Of a stretch of 64,000 nucleotides of DNA, positions 2,234 through 60,600 are shown piece by piece. The DNA is from Candidatus Nomurabacteria bacterium (GTDB taxonomy: Bacteria; Patescibacteriota; Minisyncoccia; Phycocordibacterales; UBA918). The DNA is taken from contig JACKGF010000001.1 in the NCBI GenBank assembly GCA_020632095.1, forward strand, positions 444,937-508,936, read 5' to 3'. A program made the translations under genes and the position numbers. The notes under the pieces are model-generated. The model ran no database searches, had not been told where the DNA came from, and saw only the letters and a program-made list of their open reading frames with translations. Positions within the stretch are counted from its first letter, which is position 1, and each line of letters begins with the position of its first letter.

Positions 2234-2662
2234 TTATAGGGGATTGATTTTTAAATTTTTCAATAATTGCGAGTGCAAGGGTGTAGGTAAACTATCAGCC
2301 GTAAACCAACCGATTTCATCGTGTTTATCTGGCTCGTTATTTACTACTTGCTCAGGATCAACCAACACTTTGAAAGCAAAACTTATCCAATGTGTAGAAA
2401 CTCCATCATGTTCCCGAAAAACTTCGCGGTGACCGAGACTCTCTAAAGAAACAATATCCGCGCCATACTCTTCTTTTACTTCACGCGACAATCCGTCGGC
2501 AATAGTTTCGCCAAATTTCAGACCGCCGCCGCCAAAATCCCAGCAACCATGCTCATCTCTACAATTAACATTTCGGCGATGCATTACATAATTACCTTTT
2601 CCATCATGACAGCGAAAAGCCACTGATACACCAATATAATCAATTCCCTTTTTCATAAACAA
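2234..2662 (-). CDS. NUDIX hydrolase
   Basis: canonical Nudix box GGGLKFGETIADGLSREVKEEYG (G-x5-E-x7-REVxEExG). Confidence 0.8.
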   Translation of the reverse strand: MFMKKGIDYIGVSVAFRCHDGKGNYVMHRRNVNCRDEHGCWDFGGGGLKFGETIADGLSREVKEEYGADIVSLESLGHREVFREHDGVSTHWISFAFKVLVDPEQVVNNEPDKHDEIGWFTADSLPTPLHSQLLKNLKINPL

Positions 2663-2742
2663 ATCCTAACATAAAACAGAGTGTGCGACAGCCTTCCTTC
2701 ACACAAGGAGAGGAGTTGTAGATATCATCACTCCGGTAGCGA

Positions 2743-2881
2743 AGCATCATTGTTGAGCGAGCATCTGCAGACATCTGGCCAGTCAAAGAAAAAACCAGAT
2801 GACTATCTGGTTTTTTCTTTGCAGATGTCGAAGCCGAAGTAAAATTCTGCTGAGAATTTTACGGTCGCTCAACAATGATGC
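2743..2881. terminator. nested inverted-repeat element with a 16-bp perfect hairpin, likely attenuator/terminator
   Basis: outer IR catcattgttgagcgag / gtcgctcaacaatgatg; inner perfect hairpin aaagaaaaaaccagat-gact-atctggttttttcttt; second hairpin gtaaaattc-tgctga-gaattttac. Confidence 0.5.
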
Positions 2882-34205: not shown

Positions 34206-35360
34206 TTAAGTTGGCTCAATTTCTGTCACCAATTCAAAATACAATCCGTCTTCATGAATAAATATTTGCTCATTTTCTAATACTACTTCAAAGTCACTTC
34301 CCGGATAAATCAACTGTGTATTCTGCCAGGACCGATCATCAATCTCGGTTACATATAACCCATCTTCAAGTTGCAACAAAACTAAATCAGAACTAGTTGG
34401 TAAGAAATCATAAAAATATACATCTTGTCTCTTACGATCAATTTTTATTTCTGGTCGGCAAATTTTATTTCCATTTACAATCATTGGCGTAGTAGTAGAC
34501 AAACGCAAACGCTCCGTCTCTAGCGCCACGTGCTCGCCATATCTTTCAGCTAAAGTACTGGAGGAAACGTCAGTGGTACAAAAATAGTAAGGGATACTAT
34601 TATCTGAACCTTTCCAAACTGCATACAATTCTCCTTTTCTGTCTAAAAGTTGCATACTACCACTTGTAACAATAGACTCAGTATCGGTTGCTACACCACC
34701 CACATTTGTTGATGTGGTAGCAAAACCAAACCGACCAACTTCATCCATAAAACGTTCAAAAACAGATTCTTTTACCGCCGTAGAAGTACTAAACAAACTA
34801 GACACAAAAATATACTCCTCATTTGTCTGATAAGTAGTTGTCGCTTTCTTGGTTAAAATAACGTATGGCGTTGTAGTAGTTGCTTTAGGAAATAAATTTA
34901 TTGTTGTTGATGCCAATATATAAACTTGCTCTCCAGCACTAGTATTATACTTTGCTATTGGCCTCACGTGAGGTATGGTCGGCATATTAAAGGCTGCCAC
35001 CTCTGCCACAATGTAAGAGTCTATCGGGAGAACTTTTACCCAAGTTTGCAGATCATCCCTCTGCACCACCACTCGATGTAACTTAGCTTCGATGTTTTGG
35101 ATGTAATAGGCTGATCTAAATAACCGAGGCCTTTCAACCTGTTCTTCATCTAAATAAACATCTACTTCCAAGTTATCAGTAGTAATGTACATACCCCCAG
35201 TTGTTACAATCGAAGTTTCCTCATTTTCAAAACTTAAACGATAGCCAGTGGTATAGAAAATAAGTGAAGGTAGAGCCACTAAAAAAATCACCACTAACAG
35301 CCAGAAAAAGTATTTTCGACTGTTGCGTGAAAGCGTTTGAATCTGTGGTTCTAAGAGCAT
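34206..35360 (-). CDS. membrane-anchored hypothetical protein, possible partner of the GT2 synthase
   Basis: 384 aa; N-terminal TM; 8 nt after the GT2 gene on the same strand. Confidence 0.5.
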   Translation of the reverse strand: MLLEPQIQTLSRNSRKYFFWLLVVIFLVALPSLIFYTTGYRLSFENEETSIVTTGGMYITTDNLEVDVYLDEEQVERPRLFRSAYYIQNIEAKLHRVVVQRDDLQTWVKVLPIDSYIVAEVAAFNMPTIPHVRPIAKYNTSAGEQVYILASTTINLFPKATTTTPYVILTKKATTTYQTNEEYIFVSSLFSTSTAVKESVFERFMDEVGRFGFATTSTNVGGVATDTESIVTSGSMQLLDRKGELYAVWKGSDNSIPYYFCTTDVSSSTLAERYGEHVALETERLRLSTTTPMIVNGNKICRPEIKIDRKRQDVYFYDFLPTSSDLVLLQLEDGLYVTEIDDRSWQNTQLIYPGSDFEVVLENEQIFIHEDGLYFELVTEIEPT

Positions 35361-35368
35361 AATTTATT

Positions 35369-36928
35369 TTATTTTATTCTTTTCGGAGTTACCCAGAAGC
35401 CCATATAACGACCGAACATCAATCTCGTCTGAGCATCAAGACCAGGAATAGCGCTAAAGAAAATCATTGTCATTGGTACCATAATCCACTGCAATGTCAT
35501 TACTATATACCTGAAACGACTATGTCCATCGGGACGCGGTGGAGTCAAAGAAAGTGAAATAACAGAAGAAACCACCAAACCAAGCATAGCTACAACCAAC
35601 AAGTTACGGACCATGATTGGTAATTCATACGACAGAACGGTCTCGTGAAATTCTCGTGTCCCTAGAAAAATCGGTGCCCAACCGAGAATAAACAACATAA
35701 TAGGATTGGTCACTAGTGACCAATAACCTTCTCCTTGAATCGCCGAAATAGCTAACCGCTTCTTGAGAGGAATCGCTTTGTTTTTGGTAAAGTGATAAAT
35801 CAAGTAACACCAATTCTCTACTCCATAAGTCCAGCGTCGATGTTGACGATAAATATTTTGAACTGTCCCCCACAAAGTTGGAGCTGTAGTAGCGTCCATA
35901 GCAATCGGATATGACAGAGATACGACTTCAAATTTTCCATCGTTAGCCAACAATAAATTCCAGAAAATTCGTGAATCTTCACTCACCACATTGGCCTGGC
36001 CATAGCCAATTTCATACAATGCCTGAAAACTAACTGAGTGTGAAGAAAAAGTTGCTGCTTTCTCTGGGCGTTCCTGCATAATCATCTGCCAAAAAGTACT
36101 AGACATCGCCATCACCCGAGACAGAGCCGTAGCTTCCCATAGGTTATTAGTAAAAAGTGGCACTGGCTGGAAAGCACTTTTGTATGGATTCTCAACTGTC
36201 ATGAAGTGCCAAATAAGACAATTGAAATAATCTGGGTAGATTACTGTATCAATATCAAAAATCGAAGTTAAGATATTTTTGTACGGAATGTTATTAGCAT
36301 CAATTATCTTCTCTCTAACTTGATGAAGTGCGAAGTGGGTATTTGAACCCTTACCAGCTATTTCGCCAACAATGTTTTCTGGATGAATAGTTACTAAAAA
36401 ATGTCCGAATTTCTGACCAAACTTTTTCTCCATTTCATTGGCTAATTTCTTAGCCTCCTCTCCTGCTCTCTCCTCCGCAGCTAAGACGACAATAATTTTC
36501 TTTAAGTCATATTTTGAATCAGCTAGACCTTGTAGGGTCCCCTCAAGTACTTCGCGTGGTTCTTTATAAAAAGGAAAAATTACCAGATGATAATACTTGT
36601 CATAATTAAATCTTTGTACCAAAGATCCCCAATCAAGTTCCATATGGTGTTTTAACCTTTTCCAATTGTGCCGTACATGGACTGATAGAAAAATGGTTTT
36701 AAGTACCCAAAAGACTGAGAAAGCAATAATGAAGTAAGCAGCGAAGAAAGGTGCATACATAGATGCTAAAATAATTCCAACAATTGTAATCCAAGCTGAT
36801 AGCCCAGGAGCAATTTCTAGAAAACGATAAAGCCTCCGATCAGAGCCGGATAGTTCACTGGCACGAGCAACCTTAAAGTCAGGTCGCCTTGCATAAGGTA
36901 GCAGATAAGATGTGTCGTCTTCTGACAT
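35369..36928 (-). CDS. processive family-2 glycosyltransferase (cellulose/chitin/hyaluronan-synthase-like)
   Basis: N- and C-terminal TM bundles; ED (SEDSRIFW) and QxxRW (QHRRW) motifs. Confidence 0.7.
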   Translation of the reverse strand: MSEDDTSYLLPYARRPDFKVARASELSGSDRRLYRFLEIAPGLSAWITIVGIILASMYAPFFAAYFIIAFSVFWVLKTIFLSVHVRHNWKRLKHHMELDWGSLVQRFNYDKYYHLVIFPFYKEPREVLEGTLQGLADSKYDLKKIIVVLAAEERAGEEAKKLANEMEKKFGQKFGHFLVTIHPENIVGEIAGKGSNTHFALHQVREKIIDANNIPYKNILTSIFDIDTVIYPDYFNCLIWHFMTVENPYKSAFQPVPLFTNNLWEATALSRVMAMSSTFWQMIMQERPEKAATFSSHSVSFQALYEIGYGQANVVSEDSRIFWNLLLANDGKFEVVSLSYPIAMDATTAPTLWGTVQNIYRQHRRWTYGVENWCYLIYHFTKNKAIPLKKRLAISAIQGEGYWSLVTNPIMLFILGWAPIFLGTREFHETVLSYELPIMVRNLLVVAMLGLVVSSVISLSLTPPRPDGHSRFRYIVMTLQWIMVPMTMIFFSAIPGLDAQTRLMFGRYMGFWVTPKRIK

Positions 36929-37065
36929 GTATAACAGCGAGTATATACTTATTTTACAATAAAATAAAGGTGATTTTTGCTATTTTAGTGGTATTACACT
37001 TCCAAGGACAAGTGCTAGAATTTTTCTTAAAACCTCTCTATGAATGATTAACCCAATGAATTCAA

Positions 37066-37818
37066 GCCACCTGTATGACAAGCATACAGCGTGGCCTCAC
37101 TCGGAAGTGACCACGTCCGGCGGGGTTTAGGACGTTTGATTTGGTTTAAGTTTTAGAGTTTGTGGCCACCTGTATGACAAGCATACAGCGTGGCCTCACT
37201 CGGAAGTGACCACGTCCGGCGGGGTTTAGGACGTTTGATTTGGTTTAAGTTTTAGAGTTTGTGGCCACCTGTATGACAAGCATACAGCGTGGCCTCACTC
37301 GGAAGTGACCACGTCCGGCGGGGTTTAGGACGTTTGATTTGGTTTAAGTTTTAGAGTTTGTGGCCACCTGTATGACAAGCATACAGCGTGGCCTCACTGG
37401 AAGTGACCACGTCCGGCGGGGTTTAGGACGTTTGATTTGGTTTAAGTTTTTAGAGTTTGTGGCCACCTGTATGACAAGCATACAGCGTGGCCTCACTCGG
37501 AAGTGACCACGTCCGGCGGGGTTTAGGACGTTTGATTTGGTTTAAGTTTTAGAGTTTGTGGCCACCTGTATGACAAGCATACAGCGTGGCCTCACTCGGA
37601 AGTGACCACGTCCGGCGGGGTTTAGGACGTTTGATTTGGTTTAAGTTTTAGAGTTTGTGGCCACCTGTATGACAAGCATACAGCGTGGCCTCACTCGGAA
37701 GTGACCACGTCCGGCGGGGTTTAGGACGTTTGATTTGGTTTAAGTTTTAGAGTTTGTGGCCACCTGTATGACAAGCATACAGCGTGGCCTCACTCGGAAG
37801 TGACCACGTCCGGCGGGG
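37066..37818. repeat. perfect tandem array, about 7.6 copies of a 99 bp non-coding unit
   Basis: unit starts at 37066, 37165, 37264, 37363, 37462, 37561, 37660 and 37759, plus a 60-nt partial copy; one copy has a compensating 1-nt deletion and 1-nt insertion; stop codons in all six frames. Confidence 0.9.
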
Positions 37819-37837
37819 CCGGACTAGCCAATAAAAA

Positions 37838-37885
37838 TAATACCTAAGGAAAAGTTAACTTTTCCTTAGGTATTATTTTTATTGG
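37838..37885. terminator. long palindromic hairpin, 3' of tRNA-Thr
   Basis: taatacctaaggaaaagttaacttttccttaggtatta with A/T runs either side. Confidence 0.6.
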
Positions 37886-37924
37886 CTCTCTTCCTTCGTC
37901 ATCGAGTCACTTCTCTCGTATCGG

Positions 37925-37997
37925 AGCCACCTGTCAGATTCGAACTGACGACCTGCGGTTTACAAAACCGATGCTCTACCAACTGAGCTAAGGTGGC
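37925..37997 (-). tRNA. tRNA-Thr (anticodon UGU)
   Basis: hand-folded cloverleaf: acceptor GCCACCT/AGGTGGC, D-loop AGTTGGTA, anticodon loop TT-TGT-AA, T-arm GTCAG-TTCGAAT-CTGAC; CCA not encoded. Confidence 0.85.
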
Positions 37998-38061
37998 GGT
38001 TGCAGATTATATATCTGCGCACTGAATCCTATCAGATATCAAATTATTTTTCTACCCTTCT

Positions 38062-38505
38062 TTAGTGCTTTCCTTCCAAATTCTTATGGCGTAATTTTTT
38101 CTTTTGGGCTGGAGTCAATTCGGTATCTTCTTTATGAGCGGCCATCTGACTTAAATGATTTGTAGAATTTAATTTCTTCTTTTCAGACCTCAGTTGTTTG
38201 GCTCTAGCTCTATTTCTTTCAAAAATAGTTTCAAAAATAGTATAAAACTTTACCAAAACCTGTAACAGCGTTTTTAGGACCGAATGGATACTGTAATACC
38301 AATGCAGTTGAACAATATATTTAACAAAATGTTCAAGGCTCCTAAGCAACCAATTTCCAAACGCATCAATCTTATCGTCTAACCAATTACGTATTCCAGT
38401 AGCAAAAAATCTCCGTCCACGCTTACCTTCCTTGTATACAATAGTCACAAATACAAGAAAAACAACAATACTGATTACACAATAGATCGCTGCAGTATAA
38501 ATCAT
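38062..38505 (-). CDS. hypothetical membrane protein
   Basis: N-terminal TM helix, basic C-terminus. Confidence 0.4.
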   Translation of the reverse strand: MIYTAAIYCVISIVVFLVFVTIVYKEGKRGRRFFATGIRNWLDDKIDAFGNWLLRSLEHFVKYIVQLHWYYSIHSVLKTLLQVLVKFYTIFETIFERNRARAKQLRSEKKKLNSTNHLSQMAAHKEDTELTPAQKKKLRHKNLEGKH

Positions 38506-38510
38506 TTAGG

Positions 38511-39095
38511 CTATTTTAGAGACATTCGAGAGAATTGAGCAATCGATACATTCTCGCCAAATTTCTGTACAGCACCAGTCACCATCTCTCCAATTGTTTG
38601 ATCTGGATTCTTGATGAAATCTTGCTCCATCAAAATCTGATCCTTAAAGTATGACGCTAGTTTTCCAGCCATAATTTTTTCCTGCATTTCTGCTGGCTTC
38701 CCTTCTACCTCAGCCGCAAACACTTCTTTGGCTTTTTCAATTGATTCAGCTGGTAGCTGGTCTTTACTAACATACCGTGGATCTGTCGCTGCTACATGCA
38801 TAGCAATATCTTTTGCCAACGCCACAAATTCCTCATTCTTTGACACAAAATCAGTTTCACAAGCCAACATAACCATAGCTGCAACTTCGTTAGTGTTATG
38901 AAGATATACCCCAACCGCTCCAGCACCGAGGGTACGGTCAGACTTTTTGTCAGCCGCTTCACTACGCTTTTTCTTTAGAATGATAATGGCCTTTTCCATA
39001 TCACCACCAGCCTCAGTCAAAGCAGTCTTGCACTGCATAACTGAAATACCAGTTTTTTCCCGTAATTCTTTTAATTGAGCTGATGTAATTTCCAT
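38511..39095 (-). CDS. tsf: elongation factor Ts (short form)
   Basis: UBA-like N-terminus LKELREKTGISVMQCKTALTEAGGDMEKA; follows rpsB. Confidence 0.9.
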   Translation of the reverse strand: MEITSAQLKELREKTGISVMQCKTALTEAGGDMEKAIIILKKKRSEAADKKSDRTLGAGAVGVYLHNTNEVAAMVMLACETDFVSKNEEFVALAKDIAMHVAATDPRYVSKDQLPAESIEKAKEVFAAEVEGKPAEMQEKIMAGKLASYFKDQILMEQDFIKNPDQTIGEMVTGAVQKFGENVSIAQFSRMSLK

Positions 39096-54642: not shown

Positions 54643-57600
54643 CTAAATCCCCCCGCCCCCGCCAGCACCACCGCCACCGGCTTGGTGGAATATGCGGACC
54701 TCCAGAGCGTCGAGATTGAGGGTATTGCCACCGGGTTGAGCGGTCACCCTTAGTCTGAAGAGTGCATTGGAGAAGTTGGCTGGAGTCCAACTGCGACCCC
54801 ATTTGTCTGACGCTCCCCCCACGGTGTAGACCACGTCGGTACCAATGAGGGCTGGGGTGGCTTTAGCGGTGGTGTATGAGCTACCACCATCCCAAGAGAG
54901 TGAGACATCGACGGTGCCACTGGCAGTAGTACCGGAAATGTCTAGTTTAACGGCAATTCCTTCGATGGTATTAGAACCAGGGATATTGAAGCCAAAGGTA
55001 TCGTAGCTTTGTTTGAGGTTGATGGTTGCCGCAGTAGCGTAGACACCATCGGAGAGAAAGGCGTTGGATGGATTGGTCCACTCATTGTCTATATCACCAG
55101 TGGCGGTTGGTCGGAAGAAGTTAACGTCAGCGGCGATGTTTTCGCCGTCGACTGGTTGTCCGACTTCCCCACCTCCATCATCGCCACCCCCAAAGACATC
55201 ACCATCACCATCCGGTGGAGCGCCGCCAATGCGGTCAGACTTGCTACCAGCGCCGTGTTGGTTACGGATATGTTGAATATAGTCTACGGTGTTAGTCATG
55301 GCGGTCGAAACATCTGCTGTGATACCAATAGATGGGAGACTAATGACAACCGCGGCGTTACCGTTGATGGAGACAGTGTCTCCGATTAGGAGGTAGTCGG
55401 CACTGGAGGTAGCACTGAAGTCGCTACTGAAAGTGATAGCGCCGTGTTGACCGTTGATGGTTAAGATACCGGACGCATCTATCTGTGTGTCACCACCGTC
55501 TAGGAGACGGTCACTGTTGTTGTCTTTGTATAGTCTGAGATTAATAAGGTCACTAGTGTCTAGCTTCTGGACTCCAGAGAGAGTGAAGACTAGGTCGGTG
55601 ATAGTGATAGTTGATTCGGCTTCGAGGTTGAAGGCGAAGAGAGCGGTGTCGGTTTTGTTTTGGAAACTGAATTCATTGTCGACTTGGCCAAGGGTATGGT
55701 TGGTGGTGGTCGCGTTGACTAAAATTTCGATGAAGTTCCAACAAGTGTTGTTGCCGGCGTCGTAACCAAAAGGATTGTATAGGTCAGCTGGACAACCGTT
55801 ATTATCTTTGACATTTACGTAGTTGACGGTTTGTTGCGTACCTGGTACGTAAAAGTTGGCTTGCGTACCAGGAGTGGAAGAACGGAGCCAGACGTATGAT
55901 CCGCTGGTGCCTTCGAGAGAAATATCTTGGAAGGTGGAGGTGGCACTTGCGGGGAGTTGGAGAGAGGTAGAGGCGAGCATGGTGAGGGTACCGGTGGTAG
56001 TGACTGGGTCGGTGAGGATGACAGATTGAGAACTACTGCCCATACCACTCTGGTTGGTGATGGTTAGACTGGCGAAGGATGAGGTGGCGGTCATGGAGCC
56101 GGTGAGGGTTTGAGGGGTGGTGCCGGAGAGGGTGAGGAGAGATTCGAGGTCATGACGCGGTTGGTGCCTGTTTGCGCCACCGCCACTAAGAGACCGTTGC
56201 CATAGGTGACAGAGGTCCAAGAATTTGCCTCAGAAGCTGCTCGGGCAGTCCAGGTGATACCGTCGGGAGAGGTCATGACGCGGTTGGTGCCAGAGTCAGA
56301 AACTACCACAAAAGGCCGTTGCCGTAAGTAACCGATAGCCATTGGTTTGATTCAGCCGCAGTACGCGCTGTCCAGGTGGTGCCGTCGGGGGAGGTCATGA
56401 CGCGGTTGGTGCCCCAAGCTACCGCCACGAAGAGACCATTGCCGTAAGTGACAGATGTCCAAAAATTTGCTTCTGCTGCAGAACGCGGTGTCCAAGTGAT
56501 ACCATCTGGGGAGGTCATGACGCGGTTGGTGCCATTACCTGACACTGCCACAAAGAGGCCGTTGCCGTAGGTGACAGAGTACCAAGAGTTTGCCTCAGCG
56601 GCGGAGTGTGATGTCCAGGTGATACCATCTGGGGAGGTCATCACTTGGTTGGTGCCGTTACTAGACACAGCCACGAAGAGACCGTTGCCGTAGGTGACAG
56701 ATCCCCAAAAATTTGCTTCCGCTGCGGAGCGGGCGGTCCAATCAATACCGTCAGGAGATGTCATTACCTTTCCGCTTCCCGACACCGCCACAAAGAGACT
56801 GTTACCGTAGGTGACGGAATACCAATCACTTGTTTCAGCCGCTGTACGGGCAGTCCAGGTGATACCGTCGGGAGAGGTCATGACGCGATTGGTGCCGTCT
56901 GAAGATACCGCCACAAAGAGACCGTTGCCGTAGGTTACAGAACGCCAAAGGTTTGCTTCAGCGGCCGATCGCGCACTCCAACTCCTCCCAGCCCCGTTAT
57001 CGAAGGTGCCGTCGGTGTTGGTGTAGTCGCCAGTGACCGAGAGATGTTGAGGGCCACTACTATTGATGAAGTACCAATCGAGAAATCTGAAGTACTGGCG
57101 TTGTTTGAAAAGTCTTAGTCCCTACTCCAGTGAAAGAGACGTTCCTTAGAGCAGAAGTGCCAGTCATGGTGCCAGTGGCGGTTTGGTCGTTGTCGCCATT
57201 TAAGGTGACGAGTGAGTGGGAGGTCATGACGCGGTTAGTGCCGTCTTGTGATATCGCCACAAGTAACCGTTGCCGTAGGTGACAGAGTACCACGTGTTTG
57301 CTTCAGTGGCAGAGCGAGCGGTCCAGGTGATGCCGTCGGGTGAGGTCATGACGCGGTTGGTGCCGGTATTTGAAACTGCCACAAATAAGCCATTGCCGTA
57401 GGTGACGGAGCGCCACTGATTGGCCCCTGCAGCCGAACGAAGAGTCCAAGTGATGCCGTCAGGGGAGGTCATAACTTGGTAGGCGCCAGAATATGACACT
57501 GAAACAAAGAGACCATTACCGTAGGTGACAGATAACCAAGTAACAGCACTAACAGAGTGAGAGGTCCAGGTGATGCCGTCGGGGAGGTCATAACCGTATT

Positions 57601-60600
57601 AAATCCAACAGCCACAAATAAGCCGTTGCCGTAGGTGACGGAATACCAAGAAATCGCAGCAGCAGCCGTACGAGCGGTCCAATTAATACCGTCGGGGGAG
57701 GTCATGACTTGATTAGTACCGTCCCAGGACACCGCAACAAAGAGGCCGTTGCCGTAGGTGACGGAATACCATTGATTTGCTTGTGCGGCAGAGCGAGCGG
57801 TCCAGGTGATGCCGTCGGGGGAGGTCATGACGCGGTTGGTGCCATTTGTAGATACGGCCACAAAGAGGCCGTTGCCGTAGGTGACGGAATTCCAAGAGTT
57901 GGCCGCGGTGGCCGCGCGAGCGGTCCAGGTGATGCCGTCGGGGGAGGTCATGACGCGGTTGGTGCCTGAGTTTGAGATAGCCACAAAAAGGCCGTTGCCG
58001 TAAGCGACGGAACGCCATGAATTTGCCTCCGCCGCTGACTGCGAAGTCCAGTGACTACCTGCCCCATTATTAAAGGTTCCTTCGTTGGTGTAGTTGCCAG
58101 AAATCGCTAGTTGCTCTGGCGCGACGACAGTCGCGCCAGCATTGATGGACACATCATTCGCCAACACCTTCGTCGCCGAAAATGTCTTCGTCCCCGCCCC
58201 GGTGAAGACCGCGTTACCGAGGTGGGTGGTGCTAGAGGCGGTATCACTAATACTCTGCGCACTAGCGCCGTTGAAGGTAGTGGTGCCGGTCTGTGAGGTC
58301 ATGACGCGGTTGGTGCCACTATCTGCAACCGCCACAAAGAGGCCGTTGCCGGATGTGACGGATCGCCATTGGTTTGCTTCAGCCGCCGCGCGAGCGGTCC
58401 AAGTGATGCCGTCAGGAGAAGTCATGACACGATTACCATCTGTTGTAGCATTACACCACGTCGTATTATAACCACACGCCACTGCAACAAAGAGCCCATT
58501 GCCGTAGGTGACGGAGTACCAACTATTTGCCTCAGCGGCAGAGCGAGCGGTCCAATTGATACCGTCAGGAGAAGTCATGGTGCGGTTGGTGCCGTTTTGT
58601 GCTACTGCTACAAAGAGGCCGTTGCCGTAGGTGACGGAATTCCAGCTGTTAGCTTCAGCGGCCGCTCGGGCGGTCCAGATGGTTCCGTCGGGGGAGGTCA
58701 TAACTTGATTAGTACCGCCCCAAGACACAGCCACAAACAGACCGTTGCCGTAAGTGACTGAGGACCATGAATTGGCTTCAGCCGGTGTACGGTCAGTCCA
58801 AGTAATGCCGTCGGGGGAGGTCATTACATCTCCAGTACTAGCCCCATAAGAATCATTATATGGCGCCACAGCCACAAACAGGCCGTTGCCGTAGGTGACG
58901 GAGCTCCATTTTCTTACAACAGCGGCCGAGCGGGCCGTCCAGGTGGTGCCGTCGAGGGAGGTCATGACGCGGTTGGTGCCAGATTCTGCCACCGCCACAA
59001 ACAGGCCGTTGCCGTAGGTGACTGAGGTCCAAGAGTTTGCCTCAGCCGCCGAGCGAGCGGTCCAGGTGATGCCGTCGGGGGAGGTCATGACGCGGTTGGT
59101 GCCAGATTCTGCCACCGCCACAAAGAGACCGTTGCCGTAGGTGACGGAATTCCAAGTGTTTGCCTCAGCAGCGGAGCGAGCGGTCCAAATACCTGCATAT
59201 GCATCATAAGTACTATTATTAGTAAACTGTCCACTCACACTAAGCTCTTCAGCTACAACAACCCCATCATCATTCACTAGATTGGTAGTGGAGGCAGTGG
59301 TATTGATTGTTTTATTATTGGTACCAGTAAAAGAAAGTGTGTTGAAGGCTGATGTGCTTGTGGCTACACCATTAATTATGACTGAATTGTCACCAAGAGC
59401 GGTAACTAGGCTACTGGAAGAAGCAGTCATAACACGGTTGGTGCCGTCAGATGATACAGCTACAAAAGTACCGTTGCCGTAGGTGACTGAAAGCCATGTG
59501 TTTGCTTCAGTAGCAGAACGAGTGGTCCAGGTGATGCCGTCGGGAGAGGTCATAAGTGTTCCACAAGGATCAATATAAGATGAATCTAGATTACATACAG
59601 CAACGAAAAGGCCGTTGCCGTAGGTGACTGATTGCCACTGATTTGCCTCTGCAGCAGAGCGAGCAGTCCAGGTGATGCCGTCGGGGGAGGTCATAAGATT
59701 ATCACAAAGACTGTAAATCAAATCATATGCACACACCGCCACAAACAGGCCGTTGCCGTAGGTGACGGAGTACCAAGCATTTGGTGAGGTAGCAGCCCGG
59801 GCGGTCCAAGTGCTACCGTCGGGGAGGTCATAACTTGGTAGGCGCCAGAATATGACACTGAAACAAAGAGACCATTACCGTAGGTGACAGATAACCAAGT
59901 AACAGCACTAACAGAGTGAGAGGTCCAGGTGATGCCGTCGAGGGAGGTCATGACGCGATTGGTGCCGTCAGCAGATACAGCCACAAAGAGGCCGTTGCCG
60001 TAGGTGATGGAGGTCCATTGGTTTGCCTCGGTGGCAGCACGGGCAGTCCAGGTGACACCATCGGGGGAGGTCATGACGCGGTTGGTGCCGTCAGCAGATA
60101 CAGCCACAAACAGACCGTTGCCGTAGGTGACGGATTTCCATGAGTTAGCTTCAGCCGCTGCACGAGCCGTCCAAGTGATGCCGTCAGGGGAGGTCATGAC
60201 GCGGTTGGTGCCGGTGTTTGAAACCGCCACGAAAAGGCCGTTGCCGTAGGTGACGGAGAACCAGGAGTTTGCCTCCGCCGCACTCCTCGCCGTCCAAACC
60301 GTCCCCTCATTCCCAAAAGTCGTCGTCCCACTATTATGAGTAAAGGTACCATTGTTAGTATAGTCACCCGTAATCGTAATGTTATCGGCCGGAGCGACTA
60401 AGGTAGCGCCAGCGTCGATAGTGATGTCTGTAGTGGTGGCATTGGTAGCAAAGGTGTAAGTACCAGTTCCCCCGAACTTGAGGTTACCAATTGGTTGGGT
60501 AGCAGTGATAGTCTTCCCTGTCGTACTAGCATTAAAGTAGATAGTGCCGTGGTTACCGACTAGAGCCGTCGAAGAAGCTGATAGATTACCAGCGAGTGTA

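Follow-up and report, generated by a model that had tools for sequence, protein, structure and literature searches.

A 99-nt intergenic tandem array and a family of structured modules on the 3' side of tRNA-Thr(UGU) in Patescibacteria

Bacterial intergenic minisatellites include the MIRU-VNTR loci of Mycobacterium tuberculosis and VNTR-105/141 of Wolbachia. Integrated elements reportedly carry direct repeats of tRNA 3' ends (attL/attR). Among small-RNA systems, NsiR1 of Anabaena comprises 12 repeats with a separate promoter and terminator for every repeat, whereas in type III toxin-antitoxin systems ToxN cuts the ToxI antitoxin, made up of 36-nt repeats (about 34–36), to unit length. CRISPR arrays are built of short repeats (about 23–50 nt) separated by unique spacers. 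In Borg elements, perfect tandem repeats are pervasive across the element, and many of them create protein repeats (PMC9879509).

We analyzed a tandem array in a 64-kb stretch of DNA (the window) from a Patescibacteria genome that is Nomura-/Kaiserbacteria-like. As in bacterial VNTRs, its non-coding units (about 50–140 bp in those loci) lie head to tail between genes, are near-identical, and bear hairpins. Copy number of bacterial VNTRs is expected to vary among strains by slippage or unequal recombination; the array studied here is known from assemblies only. Unlike such VNTRs, its unit contains a copy of the adjacent tRNA's 3' end and is built on a conserved, structured module that is fixed 3' of one tRNA gene across the family. 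The resemblance to tRNA att sites lies in a direct copy of the tRNA 3' end downstream of an intact tRNA, with identity that sometimes extends beyond the gene, and in a variable locus with other tRNA fragments. In contrast to att sites, the insert measures only 65–90 nt, is constant in size, and has a conserved secondary structure; the core always lies within a hairpin, and no integrase or element genes are nearby. With NsiR1 and ToxI the array shares tandem, near-identical, structured, non-coding units and the putative cutting of a precursor to unit-length RNAs. It differs from both in that its relatives have one copy or none and in having no Rfam match, from NsiR1 in that a consensus scan gave its units no promoters or terminators of their own, and from ToxI in its unit length (99 nt, not 36) and its neighbors, which are a tRNA and a GT2 gene with no ToxN/AbiQ-like gene adjacent. 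As in mitochondrial tRNA punctuation and MALAT1-mascRNA, a tRNA-like helix within a longer transcript could recruit RNase P or RNase Z to set RNA ends here; unlike in those systems, the hairpin of our module is only acceptor/T-arm-like, with no T-loop or cloverleaf, making this an analogy rather than membership. The Borg repeats (PMC9879509) are comparable in being perfect, recent, and fast-evolving in genomes known only from metagenomes, whereas the present array occupies just one intergenic locus, which is linked to a tRNA.

Tandem Repeats Finder placed the array at 37066–37818 with a period of 99, 7.6 copies, and 99% matches (score 1490), and the repeat was confined to this one locus within the window. 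A sequence-only reading of the same DNA had described near-identical, non-coding units at an exact 99-nt period that do not form a CRISPR array, and our data bear this out. A 31-nt hairpin string recurred eight times at exact 99-nt steps (0 expected in shuffles), six of the seven full units were identical, all six frames of the unit contained 1–2 stops, and the seven spacers were all identical, with a repeat block of 60 nt. The compensating pair of indels reported for one copy was also found: unit 4 (37363) carries a 1-nt deletion (CTCGG to CTGG) and a 1-nt insertion (TTTT to TTTTT) that together keep the period. We prefer to describe the array as eight blocks and seven spacers rather than ~7.6 units because both outer flanks are unlike the spacer (Table 1). 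Within each block, the 3' ~43 nt, comprising a CCGAGYG motif and a hairpin (H1), are homologous to a tRNA-linked element of related genomes. A consensus scan of 37066–37818 found no promoter-like or terminator-like sites on either strand. In the same species, contig L001 has 1.6 copies versus 7.6 in the window, possibly through assembly collapse in L001, and contigs L002 and L003 terminate inside the array. The array is thus confirmed as real, with 7.6 tandem copies as assembled, and the earlier suggestion of a recently expanded, homogeneous minisatellite is supported.

Table 1. Features of the array and its surroundings (positions in the window).
Feature	Positions	Strand	Basis
GT2 family glycosyltransferase gene, 519 aa; neighbor, outside the element	35369..36928	-	Pfam PF13632, 27.2 bits; homologues with 77–89% identity
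Conserved GT2 promoter, CTTTATTTT ... TATACT, downstream of array	36940..36969	-	16-locus alignment of 75 nt upstream of GT2
Candidate plus-strand promoter, ATTACA-17-TAGAAT with TG, directed into array	36993..37021	+	Consensus scan
Tandem array (period 99) of eight 60-nt blocks with seven identical 39-nt spacers	37066..37818	- (inferred functional strand, as tRNA)	Tandem Repeats Finder and unit listing
Hairpin H1, first of 8 copies (+99 per further copy)	37066..37095	-	Read from sequence; homologous hairpins in relatives
Small hairpin P3 (GTCCGG-CCCCG-CCGGAC), start of tRNA-proximal block	37808..37824	-	Read from sequence
Perfect 60-bp palindrome, center GTTAAC, A-tract and T-tract	37827..37886	.	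Read from sequence
tRNA-Thr, anticodon UGU, no encoded CCA	37923..37997	-	ARAGORN; Rfam tRNA 71.1 bits
Promoter-like site of tRNA, CTGATA-18-TATAAT, ends ~9 nt before tRNA	38006..38035	-	Consensus scan

On the minus strand, tRNA-Thr(UGU) is followed by the perfect 60-bp palindrome, the array, the GT2 promoter, and GT2; the flanking genes encode S2, EF-Ts, RF-1, PheRS, and GyrB. The tRNA-Thr previously placed beside the array is indeed there, as tRNA-Thr(UGU) on the minus strand (37923–37997). The TCTGATAGGAT motif upstream of the tRNA is also present upstream of the tRNA in L061 and L075, and a shorter form, TGATAGGAT, occurs in L064. The palindrome is likely a bidirectional terminator of the tRNA-Thr unit; a simple terminator scan did not flag it (37827–37886). 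At the other end, the array had been thought to fill the interval up to the GT2 start, and 137 nt (36929–37065) in fact remain between them. These contain a GT2 promoter, CTTTATTTT-N12/13-GTATATACTCGC, conserved in 14 of 16 related loci at about 10–40 nt before the ATG and ending ~12 nt before it. Since this conserved promoter sits between the array and the ATG, the GT2 mRNA is expected to start ~5–10 nt before the ATG. Its position also speaks against the earlier reading, in which the array would serve the GT2 operon as a repetitive 5' leader or binding platform. The candidate promoter at 36993–37021 is relevant only to the antisense-RNA alternative considered below.

On the minus strand, H1 reads GCCAC-G-CUGUAUG-CUUGU-CAUACAG-GUGGC. 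The 12-bp hairpin described earlier stands, with 12 pairs (13 in internal copies) and one bulge, after correction of its sequence, in which a C had been doubled; the corrected plus-strand form is GCCACCTGTATG-ACAAG-CATACAG-(C)-GTGGC. The H1 3' arm, ACAGGUGGC, is identical to the final 9 nt of the tRNA-Thr body, and ACAGGTGGC(T) is common to H1 and tRNA-Thr. Across modules, the 3' arm repeats the final 9–11 nt of the tRNA, and therefore every module ends in the same core as the tRNA (the core is also given as ACAGGTGGCTC; in L075, tRNA and H1 both read ACAGATGGC). On the tRNA strand, the module thus runs from a terminator-like or small hairpin through a CCGAG(Y)G motif to the 12–14-bp H1, whose 3' arm repeats the final bases of the T-stem, the 3' strand of the acceptor, the discriminator (the T that follows the arm in most copies), and often trailer bases. 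H1 loops are 3–6 nt long (CUUGU, GGA, UUU, AAAU, CAAG, GCAAGU), and a 7-nt T-loop of the UUCRANY type is absent. Because the loop is this short and lacks the T-loop consensus, and because the array units have no U-tract, H1 conforms neither to the canonical tRNA minihelix nor to the canonical terminator. The upstream hairpin is more variable. Internal units have a weaker CGUCC...GGACG hairpin, formed partly from the spacer, in place of P3, and L034, L075, and L088 have hairpins of unrelated sequence at the equivalent position.

Comparison of copy number with related genomes showed that related species carry 0–3 modules. The element is present in at least nine related genomes, with 1–3 copies each, and H1 with the CCGAG motif was located 3' of tRNA-Thr(UGU) in L015/L053, L024, L034, L060, L070, L072, L075, L080, and L088–90; modules are absent from L061, L064, L067, L081, and L091. 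Module-bearing loci are syntenic (S2, EF-Ts, a 147-aa gene, the tRNA, and GT2), with GT2 identities of 66–89% among related loci. These comparisons establish the homology and common architecture of the modules, which measure 77–80 nt from core to core in six genomes. They also establish linkage to the tRNA: in L015, L024, and L075, whose tRNA has the opposite orientation with respect to its flanks, the module still lies 3' of the tRNA and on its strand. The module in these inverted loci accompanies the tRNA and not GT2, contrary to the association of the array with GT2 proposed before, and several genomes without a module retain both GT2 and its promoter. The locus itself is variable. HNH endonuclease genes occur in the same intergenic region in L070 and L081, partial tRNA-Thr copies are found in L064, L067, L072, L081, and L085, L091 has a truncated tRNA, and L085 is a further genome with an inverted one. 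A direct repeat runs from the core into the trailer for 30 nt in L060, 19 nt in L015, and 16 nt in L075, and the spacing within H1 varies as CTGT-N8, N11, or N12-ACAG. L034 has a two-block form with a spacer different from that of the window; no homologue of the array spacer was found outside the species. In collection scans the element occupied one locus per Patescibacteria genome and was not dispersed.

An alignment of seven modules had 90.2% of cells paired, versus 36–43% in slid controls. Ten pairs were changed on both sides, and none of 500 shuffles matched the observed values. This established covariation falls mostly in P2, a terminator-like helix of a kind that could accompany any tRNA gene; in H1, whose sequence is largely conserved, only two pairs had changes on both sides. 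A strand bias was also evident. The tRNA strand gave the better fold in all seven whole modules and in 12 of 14 H1 hairpins, and changes in the H1 5' arm were nearly all transitions, mostly yielding U.G on the tRNA strand, the remainder being G-to-A at the outermost pair. The sequence-only reading had folded the plus strand, and this comparative evidence points to the opposite strand, that of the tRNA (minus in the window). In the unit of the window itself, the plus strand has the slightly more stable fold (−36.6 vs −31.3 kcal/mol); the strand call for the array rests on homology. We also built a covariance model (R1) from the relatives only, excluding the window. R1 detected the tRNA-proximal module at 37758–37934(−) with 38.7 bits (E 1e-7) and internal units on the minus strand with ~23.6 bits (E about 8e-4 in 199 kb; 23.7 bits with filters off), compared with 13.6 bits on the plus strand. 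The palindrome core was placed on P2, scoring 19.3 bits on both strands. As judged from these sequence comparisons, covariation and strand asymmetry favor an RNA hairpin on the tRNA strand. The earlier idea of an array of small structured RNAs survives only in modified form, on the minus strand and without promoter-like sites in each unit.

The 99-nt unit matched no known family in an Rfam/Infernal search of 36000–39000 with E up to 10, as previously proposed: only the tRNA passed, and other matches were far below gathering, all on the palindrome. Likewise, only tRNAs passed the gathering threshold in ten related loci. Two units searched with BLASTN matched none of 72,556 plasmids or 50,697 phage records, viral contig scans gave no match save one coding chance match (L071), and a metagenome scan with the 22-mer TGGCCTCACTCGGAAGTGACCA returned 0 matches. 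A further metagenome scan yielded 44 matches, mostly to one human-gut coding gene. In a genome scan, the 20-nt hairpin core also matched a Hyalangium repeat family and a Lachnospiraceae terminator; we take these as chance because ~1 random match per 20-mer is expected in 596 Gb, hairpins are over-represented, and no tRNA is nearby. A literature search found nothing on elements of this kind, and we take the tRNA-linked structured module to be previously undescribed.

Several other identities were considered and rejected. A dispersed repeat (REP, MITE, or IS end) disagrees with the single locus in the 64-kb window, the single locus per Patescibacteria genome, and the lack of a plasmid or phage match, and a cyanobacterial NsiR1-like array, initially suggested by the GC content, disagrees with gene content, which is that of a Patescibacteria genome. 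A LexA/SOS-box-like operator (CTGT-N8-ACAG) would suit the N8 spacing of L072 and L075 but not N11/N12 elsewhere, and the GC-skew turn of a replication origin or dif site is absent at 37 kb. The 77–80-nt core-to-core distance is tRNA-sized, yet ARAGORN and Infernal call no degenerate second tRNA gene, and the direct junction of the acceptor 5' strand with the T-like stem in modules also counts against one. Finally, an alternative helix (CGTGG/CCACG), hinted at by compensatory G-to-T and C-to-A changes in the L002 unit, is missing in L034 and L075.

A different account would place the module at the DNA level, with no RNA role. Elements directed at this tRNA, such as integrases or cassettes with a homing endonuclease, would have left or would use its cores as att-like copies of the 3' end of tRNA-Thr; H1 would then be a recombinase site with dyad symmetry, and the array would have arisen incidentally from recurrent recombination. 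We regard such a scar or site as possible, if on the improbable side. It would explain the core-insert-core form, as at integrated elements, the direct repeats that enter the trailer (most extensive in L060 and L015), the patchy distribution among close relatives, and the character of the intergenic region as a rearrangement hot spot with HNH genes and partial, truncated, or inverted tRNAs. The H1 inner stem is moreover kept as sequence (CTGTAT/ATACAG), like a protein site. On the other hand, integrases and transposases are absent within about 8 kb on each side, and the element is confined to one locus per genome in the collection scans and to this locus in the window. Constant module size, compensatory changes, and a U.G strand bias are not shown by double-stranded protein sites, and a fixed-spacing dimer site could not tolerate the variable H1 loop length (N8, N11, N12). 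It is also conceivable, but quite unlikely, that the array gives rise to plus-strand small RNAs or one long repetitive transcript, antisense to the tRNA and running from 36993–37021 to the palindrome. A sigma-70-like site with an extended −10 does lie 45 nt ahead of the first unit, the symmetric palindrome could terminate in this direction too, and the better plus-strand fold of the unit has a z-score of −2.4. However, by eye this site has no counterpart in L034 or L088, and six promoter-like sites occurred in 2.1 kb versus 3.6 expected by chance. In L075 the antisense H1 begins 4 nt past a strong terminator, leaving no room for a promoter. The preference of homologues for the tRNA strand and the low plus-strand R1 score argue against it as well, and the extra stability is due to G.U pairs in the T/G-rich, non-conserved spacer.

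Copy number might also have been inflated or invented by the assembler, as the 1.6 copies in L001 and the −1/+1 indel pair of unit 4, which resembles a long-read consensus error, could suggest. We consider this very unlikely. Three independent assemblies contain at least 1.6 copies, the short-read and k=31 contigs stop exactly at the repeat, as a longer array would predict, and by reasoning 7.6 identical copies can shrink to 1.6 in a k=141 graph. The source protein is on a 997-kb contig, suggesting a long-read or closed assembly, and relatives independently have 2–3 chained modules. Least credible of all, to the point of being barely worth entertaining, is the view that the array regulates the GT2 operon in cis, as a leader or as a platform for protein binding. 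The array adjoins GT2 in the window and in L034, but the intervening promoter, the inverted loci in which the module follows the tRNA, and the genomes that keep GT2 and its promoter without a module all tell against it.

We lean, with moderate confidence, towards the view that in this Patescibacteria family the tRNA-Thr(UGU) gene has a small structured module of its own, and that the array is a VNTR-type amplification of this module specific to one strain. The direct repeats that flank modules would permit deletion, chaining, or multiplication via unequal recombination or slippage, and expansion of a two-block ancestor would be expected to produce the pattern of eight blocks and seven identical spacers. 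When transcription of the tRNA strand continues past the tRNA terminator, the module may act as RNA; transcription of the array would require read-through of the palindrome's perfect 30-bp stem. H1, which would imitate the acceptor/T-arm minihelix of the tRNA, might form a second barrier or a structure at the 3' end, and might also be a substrate of the tRNA end-processing enzymes RNase Z and RNase P, with the read-through transcript cut to unit-length pieces. On the sequence evidence, a trailer element that mimics the tRNA acceptor arm and a recombination scar are both candidates for the function of the module, and the patchy distribution, HNH genes, and tRNA fragments at the locus fit a selfish or recombinational origin equally well. 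The eight-fold amplification is most likely neutral or merely a change in dosage, since it is recent and not common to relatives. A bolder proposal, which we hold to be rather unlikely, is that the modules represent small RNAs of a new, tRNA-linked class, with ends set by a built-in acceptor-arm mimic, and that amplification acts in dosage or as a decoy or sponge. RNase Z or RNase P would then cut read-through tRNA-Thr transcripts at every H1 to give 77–99-nt RNAs, resembling a polycistronic tRNA-guide array of natural origin, and the target of a decoy or sponge would be a factor that binds the tRNA-Thr acceptor stem.

Patescibacteria genomes are very small, with little non-coding DNA, and for this reason a 750-bp non-coding array probably does more than fill space, which applies even more strongly to a structured element retained beside one tRNA gene throughout a family. 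Should the module prove to be an RNA, it would add to the non-coding RNA candidates of Patescibacteria, few of which have been described to our knowledge, and if that RNA borrows the tRNA end-processing machinery, it would represent a new and simple bacterial route to defined small RNAs. If it is instead a recombination scar, tRNA-Thr(UGU) would be a hot spot in these genomes for competing selfish elements, among them HNH cassettes equipped with a tRNA allele of their own. Under either reading, the array would provide a strain marker for long-read metagenomics.

The array is an eight-fold, strain-specific amplification of a conserved, structured module linked to tRNA-Thr, whose terminal hairpin copies the tRNA end. 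Tandem Repeats Finder recovered a single non-coding array (period 99, 7.6 copies, 99% matches, score 1490), and every reading frame of the unit holds one or two stops, as the sequence-only reading had claimed. A 31-nt hairpin string recurs every 99 nt exactly, eight times in all, and is absent from shuffled sequence. The seven full units are identical except for unit 4, in which one C is deleted and one T added with the period unchanged, a pair that the unit listing confirms, and the identity of the copies bears out the recent expansion proposed from them. The hairpin described in each unit is present, but its sequence is corrected here to GCCACCTGTATG-ACAAG-CATACAG-C-GTGGC. Similarly, the period stands, but the array is better described as eight 60-nt blocks with seven identical 39-nt spacers, because the flanks at both ends are unlike the spacer. 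As expected for a unit matching no known RNA family, Rfam gave only tRNA above threshold in the region around the array. Two array units had no match in plasmid and phage collections, and nothing comparable in Patescibacteria was found in the literature.

The array is flanked by minus-strand genes, with a short PheRS alpha chain, PheRS beta and GyrB on one side and EF-Ts, S2 and RF-1 on the other. The tRNA-GT2 pair, GT2 being the adjoining glycosyltransferase gene, lies between genes for a 147-aa and a 384-aa protein that are conserved in every related locus and match no Pfam family. Perfect palindromes of 34–60 bp directly follow the tRNA-Thr trailer in the window and in two related loci, L034 and L075. 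Their sequence differs by genome and the centre is itself palindromic in all three (GTTAAC in the window and L075, AGCTAGCT in L034). Since an RNA hairpin loop needs no palindromic centre, this suggests symmetry maintained at the DNA level. Elsewhere in the window, a stretch of coding tandem repeats has a GC content of 0.55 versus 0.41 window-wide, and its large minus-strand proteins match EPTP and DUF6242.

Features of the tRNA-Thr locus in the window, in minus-strand order, followed by features elsewhere in the window and in related loci
Feature	Locus	Position	Strand	Detail
147-aa protein gene	window	38062-38505	-	
Promoter-like site of tRNA	window	38035-38006	-	CTGATA-18-TATAAT
tRNA-Thr(UGU)	window	37923-37997	-	sole tRNA in window
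tRNA-Thr trailer	window		-	36 nt, between tRNA and palindrome
Perfect palindrome	window	37886-37827		60 bp, between trailer and array
Array	window	37818-37066		read on minus strand
GT2 promoter	window	36969-36940	-	CTTTATTTT-N12/13-GTATATACTCGC, downstream of array
GT2 gene	window	36928-35369	-	
384-aa protein gene	window	34206-35360	-	
Coding tandem repeats	window	56146-60282		123 nt (41 aa)
Palindrome after trailer	L034	~2527-2586		
Palindrome after trailer	L075	~2283-2316		
Non-coding, tRNA-Thr to GT2	L075	2445-3000		~560 nt; also L076-L079
HNH endonuclease gene	L070	2412-2843	-	PF01844
HNH endonuclease gene	L081	2519-2905	-	PF01844
Partial/interrupted tRNA-Thr	L034	~2700-2800		
Partial/interrupted tRNA-Thr	L064	2423-3000		
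Partial/interrupted tRNA-Thr	L067	2569-3000		
Partial/interrupted tRNA-Thr	L072	2571-2760		
Partial/interrupted tRNA-Thr	L081	2265-2440		
Partial/interrupted tRNA-Thr	L085	2750-2900		
Truncated tRNA-Thr	L091	1-60		ends within T-loop

Scanning the genome collection for the 20-nt hairpin core gave one relevant match, in a Patescibacteria metagenome-assembled genome (L015). Matches in Hyalangium (L005-L007, L009, L010, L013) place the 20-nt core CCTGTATGACAAGCATACAG within a REP-like repeat family of a GC-rich myxobacterial genome, which we judged to be chance convergence. L024, L034 and L060 came from a degenerate scan of metagenomes, and L061-L092 from contigs of GT2 homologues (77–89% identity). 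According to tblastn, the homologous loci all represent one syntenic locus, each with exactly one tRNA-Thr(UGU). Where a single module follows the tRNA (L015, L024, L060, L072, L080), it reads on the tRNA strand ...ACAGGTGGCTC (core) - CAAGTGAG - P2 - GACCGAGCGCAGAG - H1, P2 being a terminator-like helix and H1 the main hairpin, which ends in ACAGGTGGCTC again. Six genomes show a core-to-core distance of 77–80 nt and L060 one of 87 nt; L070 and L075 carry chains of two or three of these modules. The version seen in the window, also present in L034, L075 and L088-90, places CCGAGTGAGG-H1 after a long perfect palindrome and the small P3 hairpin. L034 has two blocks at a distance of 92 nt, and its spacer shows no relation to that of the window. 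Over its final 43 nt, the window block aligns at 86–88% with L090 and L070, and the array spacer has no homologue outside the species. The non-coding stretch between tRNA-Thr and GT2 in L075 matches no Rfam family at the gathering threshold.

Pair counting for the P2 and H1 structure over seven single modules found 90.2% of cells paired, versus 36–43% with the partners slid, and ten pairs changed on both sides (eight in P2, two in H1); none of 500 shuffles reached the observed values. P2 and P3 differ in sequence in every genome. The H1 inner stem (CTGTAT/ATACAG) is mostly conserved in sequence; compensatory variants occur in L080, L075 and L034. In the outer 5' arm of H1 nearly all changes are transitions, most producing U.G on the tRNA strand and the rest being G-to-A at the outermost pair. 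The tRNA strand was more stable than its complement in 7/7 modules and 12/14 H1 hairpins, these instances being partly non-independent. A covariance model, R1, built from the seven single modules only, scored 38.7 bits (E 1e-7) against the tRNA-proximal module of the window (37758-37934, minus strand) and 39.5 bits against the corresponding L034 region. Internal array units scored ~23.6 bits on the minus strand (E ~8e-4 in 199 kb; 23.7 bits with filters off), and the array plus strand 13.6 bits, with H1 alone covered. Fold energies of the window unit (-31.3 kcal/mol on the tRNA strand versus -36.6 on the plus strand) do not discriminate between the strands; G.U pairs in the T/G-rich spacer, which is not conserved, account for the extra plus-strand stability.

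The H1 3' arm, CATACAGGTGGC, usually followed by T, duplicates the nine bases at the end of the tRNA body and the discriminator. The direct repeat, measured from ACAGGTGGC onward into the trailer, extends over 30 nt in L060 and 19 nt in L015, each with 2 mismatches, and over 16 nt in L075, where the tRNA reads ACAGATGGC and both H1 copies are identical to it. In L015, L024 and L075 the tRNA is inverted relative to the flanking genes; because the module still lies 3' of it on the tRNA strand, comparison of these loci indicates that the module belongs to the tRNA and not to GT2.

Since the sequence just before each module recurs at its end, direct repeats run along the locus, and unequal recombination or slippage between them could lose or multiply modules. 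Module counts range from zero (L061, L064, L067, L081, L091) through the single-module loci to two or three (L034, L070, L075) and eight in the window. Simple duplication of a single-copy segment would give an integer unit number; eight blocks with seven identical spacers would be the product of a two-block ancestor, as in L034 and possibly L001, and the expansion is very recent, given the identity of the copies. The tRNA-Thr intergenic region, 266 to 1134 bp long across relatives, is a recombination hot spot. HNH endonuclease genes (Pfam above threshold) directly follow tRNA-Thr in L070 and L081, accompany a distinct tRNA-Thr allele (T arm CCTCGG/CCGAGG) and look like a mobile tRNA-plus-homing-endonuclease cassette; upstream, L081 also retains the 5' remnant of a further tRNA-Thr copy. 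Partial or interrupted copies lie beside the intact gene in six loci. In these copies a hairpin insert recurs after the D arm (loop e.g. TCTGGGAGA or CCGGGGGAC), and ARAGORN and Rfam called none of them. In L091, unrelated sequence follows the truncated tRNA-Thr, a possible integration junction.

The identical GT2 protein occurs in four further assemblies. The L001 contig is continuous across the array with 1.6 copies and one SNP, while those of L002 and L003 end 1.2 units and 30 nt into it, the usual behaviour of short-read graphs at a longer perfect repeat. Because same-species assemblies carry the array or end within it, the repeat is real, and an assembly artefact is very unlikely; the copy number is given for the window only, as 7.6 copies can shrink to 1.6 in a k=141 graph and the L001 figure may reflect such a collapse. 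From the 997-kb source contig on record and the unit 4 indel pair, which looks like long-read consensus noise, we infer a long-read source assembly, which would support a count of about eight. In L002 (1-110) the unit differs from that of the window at six positions; two of these changes, a G-to-T and a C-to-A lying 22 nt from each other, are mutually complementary and would preserve an alternative helix, CGUGG/CCACG, competing with the H1 outer stem.

DNA-level recombination or att-like scars would agree with the arrangement of core, insert and core, with the hot spot and with the patchy distribution, and in layout the array resembles att repeats at tRNA genes. However, the constant module size, the compensatory changes and U.G bias, the variable H1 loop (3–6 nt across copies, which also argues against a fixed-spacing protein operator) and the lack of an integrase within 8 kb make this explanation unlikely. 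Still less probable is a plus-strand RNA from a promoter-like site at 36993-37021, since by eye this site has no counterpart in relatives and L075 has no room for it. As for the 5' leader or platform for GT2 suggested by the sequence-only reading, the GT2 promoter, which ends ~12 nt before the ATG and is kept in 14/16 related loci, lies downstream of the array, so the array is not a leader of the GT2 mRNA; we consider such a role scarcely credible. Nor does the array fill the interval up to GT2, as 137 nt separate it from the start codon.

Strand bias and covariation instead support a module selected as RNA on the tRNA strand, which would therefore be transcribed by read-through from the strongly promoted tRNA gene. 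On balance, we lean slightly toward the joint claim of a real array, amplified from a conserved tRNA-linked module that is an RNA-level element. H1, a 12–14-bp helix ending in the acceptor 3' strand and discriminator, could act as an acceptor/T-arm-like minihelix and might provide a second barrier or protective 3' structure after the terminator-like hairpin. RNase Z and RNase P accept minihelix substrates; if H1 were one, their cleavage would cut a multi-unit transcript into 99-nt pieces, a mechanism that we regard as rather improbable. As a possible RNA, the array recalls the tandem small-RNA arrays NsiR1 and ToxI but lacks their defining unit promoters or toxin gene, and the module recalls tRNA-like punctuation (mitochondria, mascRNA), although H1 has no T-loop. 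The amplified element appears to be undescribed. Its amplification, which behaves like a bacterial minisatellite of the MIRU/VNTR type, is real and recent and ordinary in mechanism, and is itself probably neutral or a dosage effect.
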